The notes under the pieces were generated by a model. The model was not told where the DNA came from, did no database searches, and worked only from the letters and a program-made list of their open reading frames with translations. A DNA stretch of 64,000 nucleotides, from positions 21,018,001 to 21,082,000 of the forward strand of contig NC_135804.1 in the NCBI RefSeq assembly GCF_964213995.1, read 5' to 3'. This DNA comes from Mustelus asterias (taxonomy: Eukaryota). Shown one piece after another: positions 5,310-64,000 of the stretch. Position 1 is the stretch's first letter. Each line of letters begins with the position of its first letter. The position numbers and the translations under genes were made by a program.

Positions 5310-7644
5310 AGAACAAAGAACAAAGAACAAAGAACAATACAGCACAGGAACAGGCCCTTCGGCCCTCCAAGCCCGCGCCGCTCCCCGGTCCAGGATTGAA
5401 TCCTGAATCCAGGATCCCCGCCCAATTTTCCAGCCTATCTACATACTAATATCCTATCCACCGAGCTGTCCCTCACAGCTACGATGCTTTGTTCATCACA
5501 ACCTATTAACTCACCCCCACCCCCGCCATTCCAGACCATGTGATCTCCAGGGAGAGGCAAAAACCCAGAGTGAAAACCCCAGGGCCAATATGGGGAAAAA
5601 AAAATCTGGGAAATTCCTCTCCGACCCCCTGAGGCGATCGAAACGAGTCCAGGAGATCACACTGGCCCTGATCAGAAAATGCTTCCCAACCCTATTCATT
5701 TCCACTTCTGCTTTACGAACACCATCTGAATTCCCTGCCCCCGAGACAGGTTCCCAACTATCCGCAGTCTCGCTCTGTACTGGCACCAGCAAGATGATCA
5801 TAGAATGAAGCCTTGAAACGAGAAACAAAGAACAATTAGCCCGCGCCGCTCCCTGGTCCAAACTAGACCACTCTTTTGTATCCCTCCATTCCCACTCCGT
5901 TCATATAGCTGTCTAGATAAGTCTTAAACGTTCCCAGTGTGTCCGCCTCCACCACCTTGCCCGGCACCACATTTCAGGCCCCCACGACCCTCTGTGTAAA
6001 ATATGTCCTTCTGATATCTGTGTTACACCTCCCCCCCTTCACCTTGAACCTATGACCCCTCGTGAACGTCACCACCGACCCGGGGAAAAGCTTCCCACCG
6101 TTCACCCTATCTATGCCTTTCATAATTTTATACACCTCTATTAAGTCTCCCCTCATCCTCCGTCTTTCCAAGGAGAACAACCCCAGTTTCCCCAATCTCT
6201 CCTCATAACCAAGCCCCCCCATACCAGGCAACATCCTGGTAAACCTCCTCTGTACTCTCTCCAAAGCCTCCACGTCCTTCTGGTAGTGTGGCGACCAGAA
6301 CTGGACGCAGTATTCCAAATGCGGCCGAACCAACGTTCTATACATCTGCAACATCAGACCCCAACTTTTATACTCTATGCCCCGTCCTATAAAGGCAAGC
6401 ATGCCATATGCCTTCTTCACCACCTTCTCCACCTGTGACGCCACCTTCAAAGATCTGTGGACTTGCACACCCAGGTCCCTCTGCGTCTCTACACCCTTTA
6501 TGGTTCTTCCATTTATCGTGTAGCTCCTCCCTACATTATTCCCACCAAAATGCATCACTTCGCATTTATCAGGATTGAACTCCATCTGCCATTTCTTTGC
6601 CCAAATTTCCAGCCTATCTATATCCTTCTGTAGCCTCTGACAATGTTCCTCACTATCTGCAAGTCCTGCCAGTTTTGTGTCGTCTGCAAACTTACTGATC
6701 ACCCCAGTTACTCCTTCTTCCAGATCATTTATATAAATCACAAACAGCAGAGGTCCCAATACAGAGCCCTGCGGAACACCACTAGTCACAGGCCTCCAGC
6801 CGGAAAAAGACCCTTCCACTACCACCCTCTGTCTTCTATGGCCAAGCCAGTTCTCCACCCATCTAGCCACCTCCCCCTTTATCCTATGAGATCCAACCTT
6901 TTTCACTAGCCTACCAGGAGGGACTTTGTCAAACGCTTTACTAAAGTCCATATAGACAACATCCACGGCCCTTCCTTCGTCAACCATTCTGGTCACTTCT
7001 TCAAAAAACACCACCAGGTTAGTGAGGCATGACCTCCCTCTCACAAAACCATGCTGACTATCGTTAATGAGTTTATTCCTTTCTAAATGCGCATACATCC
7101 TATCTCTAAGAATCTTCTCCAACAACTTCCCCACCATGGACGTCAAGCTCACCGGCCTATAATTACCCGGGTTATCCTTCCTACCCTTCTTAAATAACGG
7201 GACCACATTAGCTATCCTCCAATCCTCTGGGACCTCACCTGCGTCCAGTGACGAGACAAAGATTTGCGTCAGAGGCCCAACGATTTCACCTCTCGTCTCC
7301 CTGAGCAGCCTTGGATAGATTCCATCAGGCCCCGGGGATTTGTCAGTCTTTATATTCTCTAACAAACCTAACACTTCCTCCTTTGTAATGGAGATTTTCC
7401 CCAACGGTTCAACACTCCCCTCCGAGACACTCCCAGTCAACACATCCCTCTCCTTTGTGAATACCGACGCAAAGTATTCATTTAGGATCTCCCCTACTTC
7501 TTTGGGCTCCAAGCATAAGTCCCCACTTTTGTCCCTGAGAGGTCCGATTTTTTCCCTGACAACCCTTTTGTTCCTAACGTATGAATAAAATGCCTTGGGA
7601 TTCTCCTTAATCCTGTCTGCCAAGAACATTTCGTGACCCCTTTG
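5310..7644 (-). mobile_element. Young 5'-truncated CR1-clade LINE in BCO1 intron 2
   Basis: RT ORF 5974-7629 (GVPQGSVLGP, YINDL, KFADD, LVRPHLEYCVQFWSP), a 3' UTR, and a (TTTGTTC)n tail at 5310-5340. Confidence 0.95.
5974..7629 (-). pseudogene. CR1 ORF2 reverse-transcriptase fragment, 551 codons
   Basis: Uninterrupted RT domain, no endonuclease (5' truncation). TGA at 5974-5976 replaces the usual Trp of VVGAWN; the frame continues to TAG at 5863-5865. Confidence 0.9.
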
Positions 7645-8419
7645 TGATGTTCATCCACTTTTTAAAAAAATTAAACAGTTGTAGCTTATGTAATCTATTG
7701 AAATTGCACTACCTCAATTGGTTCTATCAGTAGTCCTACTTCTAATTAGCACATCTAATTCAGGATTGGAAATGACTGGGACTCATTCCAGTACATCTGA
7801 ATGTGGATAAATATATAGAGAATAATAACATGTTCGGAGTTAAAAATGTATTTTTAAAATCTGTATCTGGAACAAATGTCACTGCTTGATTCATCTCAGG
7901 CAGCATTCCAAACTCCAACTAGGTGTCAGTCATTGACATCCCTTTCTTTTGGGTGTTGTGTTGGCACCAGTTGCTGAATTAAGCATCAGAGAGACAATTA
8001 TCTCACTTATATCAGAATAGTTAAGGATAATGTCCCTCGCATGTATGGGACCCAGCACAGAATGTTCAGAGGATGATAGTTACAACATTTCTTCATCTCC
8101 CCAATTTTTCATCCCTCCCATTTTCACCTGAAACAAAAACACTGGCTTCTTTATAACTATATATTTTTTTAAACCTAAAAAAAAATAAGAGTTATGGAAA
8201 AGAACAGGTGAGCAGGACAAATTGGATATCTTTATCAAAGACCCAGCTGTATCGTTGGGAATTCTCTACTCAAGAAGGTTTTGGATGCTCCATCAATGAA
8301 TATATTTAAGTATGGGATAGACAGATTTTTGGTCTCAGGTCTTATGGGGAACAGGCAGGAAAGTGAAACTGAAGCCCAGGATAAGCCATGATCCAACTGA
8401 ATGGCAGAGCAGATCGTAT

Positions 8420-20654: not shown

Positions 20655-21214
20655 CCCACCCCCCCAAGGTGATTACAGTCTATAACCTCCAGAGTTTCTA
20701 CACAGTCCAACTCCAATAGGCAGGCCTATAGGCACAGACTTCGAGTCAAGGGAGAAGTAGTTGTAATGATGGTGCCACAGAACATTAAATCTGAACAAGG
20801 ACTCTGTCCTGGAACAAGATTGGTAGTTAGCGCTGTCCTTTGACGGTAGATGGTGAAATGACAACATGCAGATTTCAATGAAACAGTGTTTATTCCTTGA
20901 ACAATACTGAGCCCATCAGGTGTAAACCTGCTTTTTCAACTCAGGAGAGAATAGTTCCCAATTAGGCTTTCACACTCCAAGACTTCAAGGGGCATCTTGA
21001 CAAATACATGAATAGGATGGGAATAGAGGGATATGGTCCCCGGAAGGGTAGGGGGTTTTAGTTCAGTCGGTGCAGACTTGGAGGGCCGAAGAGCCTGTGC
21101 CTGTGCTGTGATTTTCTTTGTTCTTTTGACTACAAACAAGTAACAAGATTAGACTTTTGACAAAATTGGTAGTGTTATTTCTGGGGGAATTTTAAATGAT
21201 TTAAAAAAAAATAT

Positions 21215-23501: not shown

Positions 23502-24658
23502 CTAGAAATATCAGAAGAAAATACGTCCAAGTCTGATTCCAAGTTGGTCAGTCTCAGATATTGTCAATAGGTCTATGGGTCCTGTTACCTAGGTTTCAAT
23601 TATGAATCACGTTGCAAAACATTGCATTTGTCCCAAAACCAAATCTACACATTCAGCTTAAGTGTACATTATTTTGACTTTAATTTTCCCTACAATTAAA
23701 TACAAATCCACTATGCCCCCTTGTTAGAGTTATCGAGAATCTGTGGTACAAAACTGAGACAGCATAGTAACAATGATTACATCTTCAACAAATTTCACTT
23801 CACCCTTCACTGTTTCTCCACCTATATAACTATCTCTAAGGACGCAATGCTTTCTCTCCATCTCTTGCTTATCCGTGTGCCTTTGCTTCACCAAAACTCT
23901 TAACATGTATTATCATGTCACTGCTCCCTCCTCATACTATCTTAGATACAAAGCTAAGCTGGTATGCCTTGCATTCTGAAATAAGTTTCAGTAAAAGGCT
24001 AATTTCACCTTGCCAGGCTACCCGAGAATTCAAGATTAGTGTAATAGAGACACATTGGGTAGAACAAAGGACAATGCAGCACAGGAGTCGGCCCTTTAGT
24101 CCATCAAGCCTGCGCCGATACACGATTTCTATCCCTCTGTTCGATTCCCATTCGTGAGTCTATCATGATACACCTTGAATGTTGCTAACGTGCCTGCTTC
24201 CACTACCTCCACTGGCAGTGTGCTCCACACACCCACCACCCTCTGAAAAACTTGCTCCGCACATCTCCCCATAACTTACCACCTCTCACCTTAAACCTGT
24301 GCCCGCTTGTAGTCGACCCTTCCATCCTGGGAAAAAGCCTCTGACTATCCACCCCATCTATACTTCTTGTAATTTTGTAGATTCCTATCAGGTCACCCCC
24401 TCAGCCTCTTTCTTTCCAGGAAAAACAATCCGAGTTTGTCTAGCCTCTTCTCATACCTAAAACCCTCCAGGCCAGGCAACATCCTGGTAAACCTTCTTTG
24501 CACCCTCTCCAAAGAGGTAACTGTCTCGTGTACTCTCGGTCCCATCAGCACTATTTGTGTATCTACAGTGCGTAGGCACCAATTAATATCAAAGTCAGGA
24601 TATGAAACACGGTAATGAATTATTTGAGAAAATCAAGTCCCCAACAGCTACTTCATAC

Positions 24659-39188: not shown

Positions 39189-41699
39189 AAGAGAGTCCAT
39201 CCTGTCCTGGCATCAGTCACATCTGTTGCCCCTGGGATCTCCACATCCTGACACCCTGTGGCCTTCCAGCAACCGACTCCACCCACCCCCCAGCGCCTGC
39301 CTCCAACCCCTCTGGCAACCCCATCACAACCCCCCATGCCTGCCAACATACACCACCTGATTGCCCCGACACCCATGGCCCTTCCAGTTATCAGGCTTTC
39401 AATCCTCCCAACTGACCTGCAGGGGAAAACGGTCCATAATCATGGGAACAAACATCGGAATTAGCAGAAGTTGGCAAATTCAGCCCTTTGAGCCTGATCC
39501 ACCATTCAATCAGATCTTGGCTGATCTCTCCCTGGTCTCAAATCCACCTCCCCATGTGGTCCCCATGTCCCCTTATCCCTTTTTTAAAATTGGGAATATA
39601 TCTACCTCCTTGAAACCGTTCAACAATTTGGACTCCACCGCGCTATGGGGCAGCAAGTTCCACAAATTCCCCACCCTCTGCAAGAAGTAGTTCGTCCTCA
39701 TCTCAGTTTTAAATCTACCGCCTCTCAACCTATACCTGTGACCTAGATTTCCCCATAAGAGGAAACATTTGGTCTACGTTTACTTTATCAATCCCGTTTT
39801 AAAATTTTATATACCGTGATTAGATCCCCTCATCTTTCTAAACTCCAGTGAGTATAAGCCCAAACAAACTACTTAATCTCTCCACATACGTCAACCCTTT
39901 CATCTCTGGAATCAATCTGGTGAACCTCCTCTGAACTGCCTCCAGTGACATCACATCCTTCCTCAAATGAGATCAAAACTCGACACAATACTCAAGATCT
40001 GGTCTCACCAACACACTATACAATTGCAACAACACTTCTCTACTTTTATGCTCCTAAAACACTCCTCTACTTTTAACTCTATGATAGTTGCCGGGAGCCG
40101 GAGAAGACCGAAGATGGGGTTCCGCTGAGCTGTGTCTCCTCATGCCCTTTGAGGAGCGAGCACTGGAGCTATCGGGAGGCCAAGGACAGAGTTATCTCCG
40201 ATAGCCAGGTCAGCATGGGCCATGGAAGTGAGGATCCACAGAACCTTTGTTCATATGACATATCTCTACTACTTGCCCCTTCTTTGCTCAGAACCATGTG
40301 TCTTTTGTTGCAGGAAATGACCCCGAGGAGGCTGGCACATTAGGAGTCGCCGCTGTCCTCCTGCTGTGACACCCGACAACAGCACTGATGACACCTCAGA
40401 GGCAGGCTCGATGAAACCTCTGAGGAAAGCACGTCGCATTCAACACGCGCTTTCACCACACAATCCATCAGTGCAGATATAGTCATCTCAGTGACTCGCT
40501 ATGTTAATGGTGGGGCTTCTGGGTCAGTTCCTGGTGTGCACAACACAGTCTTAAATGCACATTGGGTAGGGGCTGGAATATCCGAGATCTCGGGCACATG
40601 GAGGTCTGCCAGAACTGAGGAATCAGCTGGCCCCCAGCCAGGTGCCAGATCACTGGGATCAGTTCTCCTGAAGCTGCTGGAGATGCAGCAACAGTGTCGG
40701 GGATTGCAGGAGGAGCTGTCAGCAACACTGCAGCAGCTGCGAGGCTGTTTGGAGGTGCAGGAGGTGGTGCCGGCATTGCGTGGCATTCAGGCCAACTGTC
40801 TAAGGGTGGCATCTGCAATGGAAAGCCTGGGGCAGGAAATGGTTGTCATGGGTAGCAGGGTCCAAGTCATGGTGAGCCTCTGAGGACCATGCTGAGGCTG
40901 TTGGGGACTCTAGACTCAGTGGGCCATGGCTGTGTGCCTCGAGAGCTTGTCCCAGTCTCAGAGCACGGAGAGCATCCAGAGCTTTGTCTAAACTCCAGAG
41001 GGCCATTGCTGAGAGCTCGCACACCATGGGGTGGATGCAGTTGGGCCTCCAGGACTGGCAGAGCCATGTGATGCTGAGGCTTTTGGAGCTCACTCCAGCT
41101 GCCCCGCCATCCCATGGAGGAAGGGCTGGAGCCCATGCCGGAGCCTTCCACCCGGGAGACCCCGCCAGACCTTCCGATTTTCCCCCCCTTGCAGACACCG
41201 GAGCATCTTACAGGCAGTGGGATGAACAGGGAACCACGACTACATCCGTGTCATCCTAAAATTGACCTGGGCGCTCGAGGTTCCGGCCATCCTAGGAGAC
41301 GCCTGCCAAGGGCATCACAGGCCACGGGGTGTGGAACGCAGCTGATCCCCCCCACTTCTGATGAGCATCCTGGAGAGATACCTCGACAAAGCGGTAGGCC
41401 ACATCCAAAGATGTGCAGGTTAGGTGAATTGGCCAAGCTAAATTGCCCCTTAGTGTCAGGGGGACTAGTTAGGGTAAATACATGGAGTTACGGGGATGGG
41501 GCCTGGGTGGGATTGTGGTTGATGCAGACTCGATGGGCCGAATGGCTCCTTCTGCACTGTAGGGATTCTATGATTCTATGTAAGATTAAGAAGGCATATA
41601 CTAGTTAGGGTTAGGATAATATGCACTGTTAAAAATCACCAATAAATGTTGTTGCACCCCACAGCTGTGACTTCTATGTCTGTCATCCACCTCCCACAG

Positions 41700-49744: not shown

Positions 49745-50830
49745 AGCATGGCCATAGCTACTCTTTTCTAGCACTGGCAACATTCTTGTAAACCCTCCTC
49801 TGCACTCTCTCCAGAGCAATTATGTCCTTCCTGTAATGTGGTGACCAGAACTGCACACAATACTCCAATTGTGACCTCACCAGTGTTTTACATAATTCCA
49901 ACATTATATCCTTTTATATTCTATACTTCTGCCAATGAAGGAGAGCATTCCATATGCCTTCTTTACAACCTTGTCTCCTTGAACTGCTGTCTTTAGGGAC
50001 CTGTGTACTTGTATGCCAAGATCTTACACTTCATCTACCCTCTTATTATGTTACCATTTATTGTGCATTCCCTATAACTGTTTGGCCTCCCTAAATGCAT
50101 TACCTCACACTTCTCTATGTTAAAATCCATCTGCCACTTTACTATCCACCCCACCAACTCATCTATATCATTTTGGAGATTATAGTTATCCTCTACACTA
50201 TCCACTACTCGGCCAATCTTTGTGTCGTCTGCAAATTTCCCAATTGTGCTTCCCACGTTCCCGTCCAAATCGTTAATATACAACACAAATCGTAAGGTTC
50301 CCAACACCGAGCCCTGTGGGACACCACTTGAAACAACTTTCCATTCACAAGGGCATCCATAGACTATTACTGTTTCCTGTTACTAAGCCAACTTTTTATC
50401 CGGTTTGCCAAATTACCCTGTATTCCATTGGCTTTTACTTTTTTGACCAATCTGTCATGTAGGACCTTGTCAAACGCCTTGCTAAAATATGTGTTCACAA
50501 CGCCCGCTGCACTACCTTCATCAACCCTTCTTGTCACTTTCTCAAAGAAGCCAATCAAATTTGTGAGACAAGACCTTTTAACAATTCCATGCCGAGCATT
50601 CCTAACTAGTCCATGCCTTTCTACGTGACAGTTAATTCTATCTCTTAAGATTGGTAGTGGGCAAATTAGTAGAATCAATGTAAGATTAACTGGCTACAAT
50701 TGTTTGACATTTCCTTCCATCCTTTTTTAAACAACAGAACAACATTTGCATTCCTCCAGTCCTCCGGCACCTCACTTGTGTCTAGTGAGGATTGGAAAAT
50801 AATCCTCAGATCATCTGCTATTTCCTCCAT
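49745..50830 (-). mobile_element. CR1 LINE RT fragment
   Basis: SCLTNLIGFFE, FSKAFDKV, YINDLD and KFADDTKIG, with frameshifts. Confidence 0.85.
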
Positions 50831-63194: not shown

Positions 63195-64000
63195 ATAAAT
63201 TCCACAGATTCACCACCCTTTGAGAGAAGTAGTTTCTCCTTATCTCTGTTTTAAATCAGATATCCCTTATCCTAAAGCTATGACCTTTTGTTCTAGATTG
63301 CTCCACAAGAGGAAGCATCTGATCTACGTCTACTTTGTCAATACCTTTTAACATCTTGTATACTTCAATTAGATCTCCCCTCATTCTTCTAAACTCTAGA
63401 GAGTACAGGCCTAAACTGCTCAATCTCTCTTCATAAGACAAACCCCCTCATCTCTGGAATCAATTTAGTGAATCTCCTCTGAACTGCCTCTAATGCAACT
63501 ACATCCTTCCTCATTAAGGGGACCAAAACTGTACACCGTGCTCCAGGTGCGGTCTCACCAATGCCTTATATAGTTGCAGCAACACTTCCTTACTTTTATA
63601 CTCAATTCCTTTCGCTATAAATGCCAAAATTCTATTTGCTTTCCTTATTACCTGTTGTATTTGCATACCAGTTTTCTGCAACTCATGCACGAGGACACCC
63701 TCTGCACCAAAGCGCCCCAAAGTCTCCTTCCACTTAGATAATAAGTTGCCTTTCCATTTTCCCGACCAAAATGGATAGCCCCACACTTATCCACATTAAA
63801 CCCCATCTGCCACATTTTGGCCCACTCATCTAACCTATCTATATCCATTTGTAAATTTCTTTTCCACATTGCAGCTTACTATCCCACTTATTTTATTGTC
63901 ATCTGCAAATTTAGCTATAGTACCTTCTATTCCTGTATCCAAGTGATTAATATAACTTGTAAATAGTTGGGGCCCAAGGACTGAATCCTGTGGTACCCCA
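63195..64000 (-). mobile_element. CR1 LINE RT/3' fragment
   Basis: LVRPHLEHGVQFWSP and YEERLSSLGLYSLEFRRMRGDLIEVYK. Confidence 0.85.

Follow-up and report, generated by a model that had tools for sequence, protein, structure and literature searches.

ENE-type elements and related 3' end structures

The ENE is a U-rich internal loop that lies next to G-C pairs and binds poly(A) (PMC7583470, PMC13541005). Double-domain ENEs, with two U-rich loops and a short duplex between them, occur in plant and fungal transposons (PMC7583470, PMC13541005), and the ENE of Evade increases RNA stability and transposition (PMC12501189). The ENE reviews consulted list such elements from viruses, from transposons of plants and fungi, from slime mold and stickleback retroviruses and from MALAT1/MEN-beta, and mention neither vertebrate LINEs nor polyadenylated host gene clusters. 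Here we analyze a module in the 3' UTR of a CR1-type LINE from Mustelus asterias, located in a window of 64,000 nucleotides (the whole stretch of DNA analyzed, to which all coordinates below refer).

With the double-domain ENEs of the rice hAT element TWIFB1 and of Arabidopsis Copia93/Evade, the module shares two U-rich loops, a short duplex, G-C flanks and a position in a transposon 3' UTR. In contrast to these elements, it resides in a non-LTR element of a vertebrate as well as in host loci, rests on a three-way junction that bears an extra hairpin, has a lower loop of three or four U after two A, may form a pseudoknot, sits in a LINE without a poly(A) signal and is known here from sequence. 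The single-domain ENE of KSHV PAN likewise has a U-rich loop flanked by short stems and followed by a polyadenylation signal, as in the apparently non-coding loci described below, and the bird-like copies of the module also have a single loop. However, PAN forms five U.A-U triples (PMC7583470), whereas the lower loop of the module could form three or four at most, and the module is cellular, multi-copy and equipped with additional conserved parts. MALAT1/MEN-beta and the MALAT1-like loci of lizards and fish are vertebrate, multi-copy and non-coding, and carry a looped, U-rich stem close to their 3' ends (PMC10869381). They differ from the module in that the LINE UTR has no encoded A-rich tract, there is no mascRNA-type Rfam match, and a canonical AATAAA is found in place of a tRNA-like processing signal. 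The known 3'-terminal hairpin and microsatellite of CR1 elements are present at 5315-5365; the module lies upstream of them as an insert in its own right, one that can be dispensed with. No published description of the module in CR1 or in vertebrate host loci was found; the tables of Tycowski 2012 and 2016 and of Torabi 2021 may list such elements. A preprint on chicken LL2R (bioRxiv 10.64898/2026.03.19.712899) showed no link to it. The module is selected, structured and apparently undescribed.

A structured module in the 3' UTR of a CR1-type LINE

An earlier note, made from the letters alone, had placed the structure in a CR1 3' UTR, and this setting was borne out. On the minus strand, an ORF2 fragment with the RT domain and C-terminus (5974-7650; 558 aa open; Pfam RVT_1, E=3.9e-36) is followed by a 3' UTR of ~660 nt (5315-5973) that ends in a (GTTCTTT)n tail and has no A tail. 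This order of RT ORF, 3' hairpin and microsatellite tail is that of a CR1 LINE; the CR1 label itself comes from likeness by eye to CR1 consensus sequences, not from a tree. Self-BLAST revealed that a 23-nt LINE 3'-end motif is duplicated (copy 1, 5838-5860; copy 2, 5370-5392; both minus strand), and comparison with a sister family places the start of the functional LINE 3' end at the second copy. The terminal hairpin (5352-5365, from folding) and the microsatellite tail (together 5315-5365, minus strand) are likely the RT recognition site, by analogy with the elements treated in PMC4316615 and PMC5135761.

The core pattern of the module has 9,460 matches in the 3.68-Gb genome (control, 0), equivalent to ~9,500 LINE copies, and a motif 200 nt further 3' has 10,057. 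The best 30 DNA hits are 98-100% identical across the module region, which indicates a young LINE family. A model search of the window gave a single hit and thus no second copy of the module. The window also contains further, more diverged CR1-type fragments without the module (21068-21126, 24061-24514, 39777-40053, 49776-50791 and 63338-63853).

The earlier note had read four nested stems and a loop/flank pairing in this UTR. All four stems proved to be exact reverse complements, as did the apical loop GGGCCA (5582-5587) and the flanking TGGCCC (5663-5668), so that five of the five complementarities are exact. On the minus strand, which is the LINE sense strand, the outer stem P1 (5' strand 5652-5661, paired with 5539-5548) encloses a hairpin, P2 (5623-5639), with a variable loop and one bulged G, and a long arm (5551-5622). 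From its base, the arm consists of P3 (5616-5622 with 5551-5557), the lower U-rich loop (5611-5615/5558-5563), P4 (5605-5610 with 5564-5569), the upper U-rich loop (5596-5604/5570-5576), P5 (5591-5595 with 5577-5581) and an apical loop of 9 nt (5582-5590). Both internal loops are U-rich on both sides, as had been noticed, and measure 5 nt/6 nt and 9 nt/7 nt. P1, P2 and the long arm together make a three-way junction on the sense strand; P2, absent from the earlier note, is present in the minus-strand fold and absent from plus-strand folds. The 138-nt region folded better than 200 of 200 dinucleotide shuffles on each strand (z -3.50 plus, -3.57 minus), and the inner 103 nt alone were weaker (z -1.64 and -1.79).

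With its three-way junction and possible pseudoknot, the module might be a ribozyme that cleaves itself and so trims transcripts of the LINE or the host, a role the earlier note had listed, and ribozymes are reported in other non-LTR elements (PMC8501958). We consider this very unlikely. The Rfam check that had been proposed returned no match to a ribozyme or other model above threshold (at E<=10 the module had only a below-threshold lncRNA hit, E=3.1), the host loci had no Rfam match, and a CUGAnGA hammerhead core is absent. Nor do the 5' ends of LINE copies pile up. Among the first 100 listed copies (of which the first 30 and 17 others without the core pattern were examined), 8 start within the module, each at a position of its own, and another 9 start in the ~100 nt below; in this scatter, neither a cut site nor a strong RT stop is apparent.

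Probable capture of the module from clustered host loci

The module is also present in ~57 host loci, which are clustered and have no reverse transcriptase next to it. A search with one diverged copy scored 40 places, 30 of which were taken as loci (21 of a family A and 9 of a family B), and 12 further copies added later raised family B to 21. A pattern around the poly(A) signal of the host loci had 40 genome matches, mostly in local clusters. Family A and B loci have no RT ORF next to the module and no LINE tail, with the exception of L135, which has a short inserted LINE tail. The two families are homologous past both ends of the piece shared with the LINE, including the AATAAA and the GU-rich stretch after it.

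The LINE and family B have a 366-nt segment in common (5457-5822, minus strand; 83-89% identical), and its ends, 5822 and 5457, are the same in 20 of 21 family B copies (5818 and 5454 in the remaining copy). In the LINE, this segment is an insert between the duplicated 23-mers; the ~65 nt between it and the second 23-mer (5456-5393) match neither host family. Segment trees separated the LINE plus family B from family A at 100/100, and strict nesting of the LINE inside family B was not established (p-AU 0.22). A sister LINE family without the module has 15,786 genome matches; none of 12 sister loci checked carry the module, and in 11 of them the match runs to 5838 and starts again at 5392. Most likely, the module is not original to the LINE family and was captured from the clustered host loci. 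The sequence comparisons argue strongly for transfer from host to LINE, which is the more economical direction because a LINE insertion would leave its tail in the host loci.

The sister family also bears on a further suggestion of the earlier note, that the structure is a binding site for the LINE reverse transcriptase. Stringent LINEs do use 3' UTR stem-loops for recognition (PMC5135761), but a family of 15,786 matches has the module in 0 of the 12 copies checked, the host loci with the module are clustered rather than dispersed and have no LINE tails, and the usual terminal hairpin and tail lie ~170 nt downstream. We regard this role as extremely unlikely.

Upstream of the host loci, ten 9.9-kb stretches contained only retroelement ORFs and tandem non-coding units. 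The idea that the host loci are zinc-finger genes was rejected, as no C2H2 motif occurred in ORFs of at least 110 aa in the 10 upstream stretches, and 74 ORFs from three loci gave only 4 Pfam matches, all to LINE-type domains. Upstream of three family A loci (L165, L166, L169), a unit of ~1.7 kb with a short internal minisatellite and no Pfam domain is repeated several times in tandem; upstream of four family B loci (L167, L172, L173, L174) there is a common antisense open frame of ~118 codons without a Pfam match.

Conservation of the module

Selection was assessed from fixed differences, counted in columns fixed at >=70% within each group. Comparison of 58 LINE copies with 9 copies of family B gave a single fixed difference over the 134 columns of the module and 28 over the 211 of the flanks (Fisher p=1e-5); between families A and B, the counts are 8 in 134 and 62 in 198 (p=7e-9). 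This excess of flank over module differences implies that the module was conserved among the host families and, probably, in the LINE once captured; part of the pattern could be due to gene conversion. The lower loop in particular is kept as A-A-U3-4/U4-6-(C)-G in 57 of 58 LINE copies, in all 21 copies of family A and all 9 of family B, and also in the more distant C18 (9/9) and bird-like (4/4) copies described below (100 of 101 over the five groups). Single-stranded and junction bases are near-invariant, and compensatory changes are few at short distance.

Alternatively, the module may work in the host loci only and be a passenger in the LINE, with its near-identity due to gene conversion or chance. 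The success of the sister family without the module and the absence of a poly(A) signal from LINE copies fit this explanation. It would have to account for a single fixed difference in 134 columns next to captured flanks that have diverged by ~13% on both sides, and a conversion tract confined to the folded part is a special assumption; we consider a passenger role quite unlikely.

Distant relatives and covariation

A diverged group of 17 copies (9 fetched) lies on contig C18 at 15.2-16.05 Mb. At ~72% identity, only the module of this group aligns, the flanks being at random level. In C18, G-C replaces A-U in P3 and in P4, two pairs of P5 appear exchanged (by eye), and both U-rich loops are kept. 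The C18 units (L098-L106, L132-L134) are mostly 25-45 kb apart, occur in two opposite orientations and are 98-99% alike over 6 kb in most pairs; the module stands after a candidate 3' splice site and before an AATAAA. The array is possibly a multi-copy lncRNA. Upstream of the L098 module, at a distance of about 18-22 kb (L132-L134), there are long simple-repeat blocks and broken retrovirus-like ORFs, judged by eye to be zinc-knuckle, protease-like and envelope-like.

Outside this genome, neighbouring CR1 sequence marks four of five metagenome hits (L061-L063, L065) as bird-like. In these copies P2, the lower loop and P3 are retained, P3 with a second compensatory change, and the upper loop is missing. 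They belong to a multi-copy repeat with up to three tandem units of ~175 nt, each a progressively decayed looped stem; in the tandem repeats the looped stem is kept and P2 dropped. L061 is not a CR1 UTR, as its CR1 ends in its own tail ~730 nt upstream and the module is in a separate repeat. The fifth metagenome hit and two hits in prokaryote genomes (L064, L066, L067) have no arm and were attributed to chance. In a sequencing run of another organism (X10), a C-G pair of P2 is replaced by U-A in one contig and by U.G in another (the RNA label of these contigs is a guess); missing cover over the UTR flanks in this run was not counted as evidence. An A-U-U-G-G-like apical motif (window 5582-5590) recurs in the shark families, in C18, in the bird-like copies and in a loose end from X10.

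In an alignment of 17 rows, P3 is paired in 100% of cells and P2 in 99%; two pairs of P3 and one of P4 are changed on both sides. Because the 17 rows stand for about four lineages, these amount to only about four to six independent compensatory events. MAFFT misaligned P1, P4 and P5 in the bird-like rows and P5 in C18, so counts over the whole structure were set aside, and eight loci found with a pattern that demands a U-A pair were left out of the covariation count. Together with the signature of purifying selection, the compensatory changes uphold the central claim of the earlier note, a conserved structured RNA carried by a retrotransposon.

Elsewhere in the genome, decayed copies of the module score up to 55 bits with the shark-built model, which indicates that the module is old in this genome; on the bird-like loci the same model reached only E 0.14-0.88. 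Pattern scans found no matches in viral contigs and no bird-type stem patterns in this genome, and a generic scan for two-arm loops overlooked the window's own module, which makes its zero background uninformative. The parallel to amphibian CR1 3' UTRs that the earlier note had drawn gained slight support: the trimmed CR1-2_XT consensus (PMC4316615) has by eye a stretch that resembles the 3' arm.

Probable active strand and poly(A) signal

Two features suggest that the module acts on the LINE sense strand, a conclusion that the comparisons support well. Related sequences carry substitutions that leave G.U pairs on the minus strand but would put A.C mismatches on the plus strand, and the C18 version of P2 is capped by a C-UUCG-G loop. 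Family A, which folds better antisense (z -5.7 versus -3.1 sense), counts against this, and the core of C18 does not fold significantly on either strand (z -0.86, -1.44).

AATAAA occurs 246-324 nt downstream of P2 in 20 of 21 family A copies, 21 of 21 family B copies and 9 of 9 C18 copies (301-324 nt in the last), against a background of 14% per 200 nt. Since families A and B are homologous, the association rests on two independent lineages. The bird-like loci have AATAAA in none of four, two of which are short. With this arrangement, the host loci may be transcribed and polyadenylated. In the LINE, however, AATAAA lies within 520 nt in only 1 of 59 copies, and its UTR contains no A tract that could stand in for poly(A).

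A predicted ENE-like poly(A) clamp

The earlier note had been reminded of ENE-type elements, and the likeness held on closer comparison: U-rich loops are set beside G-C pairs, and two loops are parted by a short duplex. Both loops are closed by G-C pairs, and a P4 of 6-7 bp separates them in all shark groups, with one loop in the bird-like copies. The lower domain of a double-domain ENE, as defined in a review (a bulge of 3-4 nt and an interrupted A-minor stem; PMC7583470), was not found. P3 is an uninterrupted stem of 6-7 bp, the 3' strand of the loop has two extra bases, and the junction follows. Double-domain ENEs also have a conserved adenosine triad and a 3'-end pocket motif (PMC13541005); in the module, two A of the 5' loop strand are invariant. 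This strand of the lower loop holds no more than three U, and the two A might pair with the opposite side; the upper loop is often interrupted in families A and B. On present evidence, the module would work like an ENE and is not classed as a double-domain ENE, because the lower-domain feature is lacking.

An ENE-like poly(A) clamp is the best fit, because the loops are conserved and, in two independent host groups, a poly(A) signal follows the module, and we hold this predicted function to be correct with slightly better than even confidence. The U-rich loops would clamp the poly(A) tail in U.A-U triples, and RNA with a clamped tail would decay more slowly. Since a poly(A) signal is missing from the LINE itself, its transcripts would need to read through to a host signal downstream, and the clamp would grip the tail added there. 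A benefit for LINE amplification is not visible, because the module-free sister has more genome matches (15,786 versus ~10,000).

P2, the junction and the apical A-U-U-G-G-like motif are conserved, yet they are not ENE features. They are consistent with a functional 3'-end structure that acts without a poly(A) triplex, either as a platform for protein binding or nuclear retention or as a pseudoknotted block to 3'-to-5' decay, the loops serving as hinges or forming internal triples. The near-invariant single-stranded and junction bases, the non-random loop/flank complementarity of 8-10 pairs and the selection of the module in a LINE without a poly(A) signal also agree with such a structure. It accords less well with the tandem repeats of the bird-like loci, which retain the looped stem and lose P2, or with a pseudoknot that is broken mid-way in 19 of 21 family A copies, reduced to 4-5 pairs in C18 and not seen in bird-like copies. 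We consider this explanation unlikely, though less so than a passenger role.

If the ENE-like clamp is the correct reading, the module would be a cellular ENE of vertebrates whose conservation spans sharks and bird-like DNA, and the LINE would be a dated case of an element that gained an RNA stability element from its host, with a natural pair of sister LINEs, one with and one without it. As a more tentative extension, which we would sooner doubt than accept, the module may represent undescribed ENE-type clamps of jawed vertebrates, set on a three-way junction and native to clustered non-coding transcription units of the host, at their 3' ends. Retroelements would have captured such clamps repeatedly, this shark LINE among them and probably also frog CR1 and a lizard retroelement, and would keep them under selection for RNA stability; in sharks a pseudoknot between flank and loop might switch the clamp.

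A candidate loop/flank pseudoknot

The 5' flank at 5661-5670 (minus strand) is a candidate pseudoknot strand, or part of an alternative fold, whose partner is the apical loop plus two bases of P5 (5580-5589). The pairing is longer than the earlier note had given, with 8 Watson-Crick pairs, or 10 in total if a G.U and a further A-U are counted. At least 8 Watson-Crick pairs occurred in 0.3% of 20,000 shuffles and at least 6 in 6.7%, in a test devised after the match had been seen. In the alternative, the flank 5663-5668 pairs with 5533-5538 and extends P1; as free duplexes, the pseudoknot pairing has -17.0 kcal/mol versus -7.7 kcal/mol for the P1 extension. The case for an apparent compensatory change in the pseudoknot (L161, L163) became weaker with the 12 additional family B copies (both changes in 3, the added G alone in 2, C alone in 2 or 3). 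The proposal that the structure is pseudoknot-capable thus stands for the complementarity, which is non-random, and is mixed for covariation. No consistent pseudoknot partner was found in the bird-like copies, and 4-5 possible pairs are left in C18. In 19 of 21 family A copies, a change breaks a central pseudoknot pair and improves the P1 extension. The pseudoknot is accordingly a possible feature of limited lineages.
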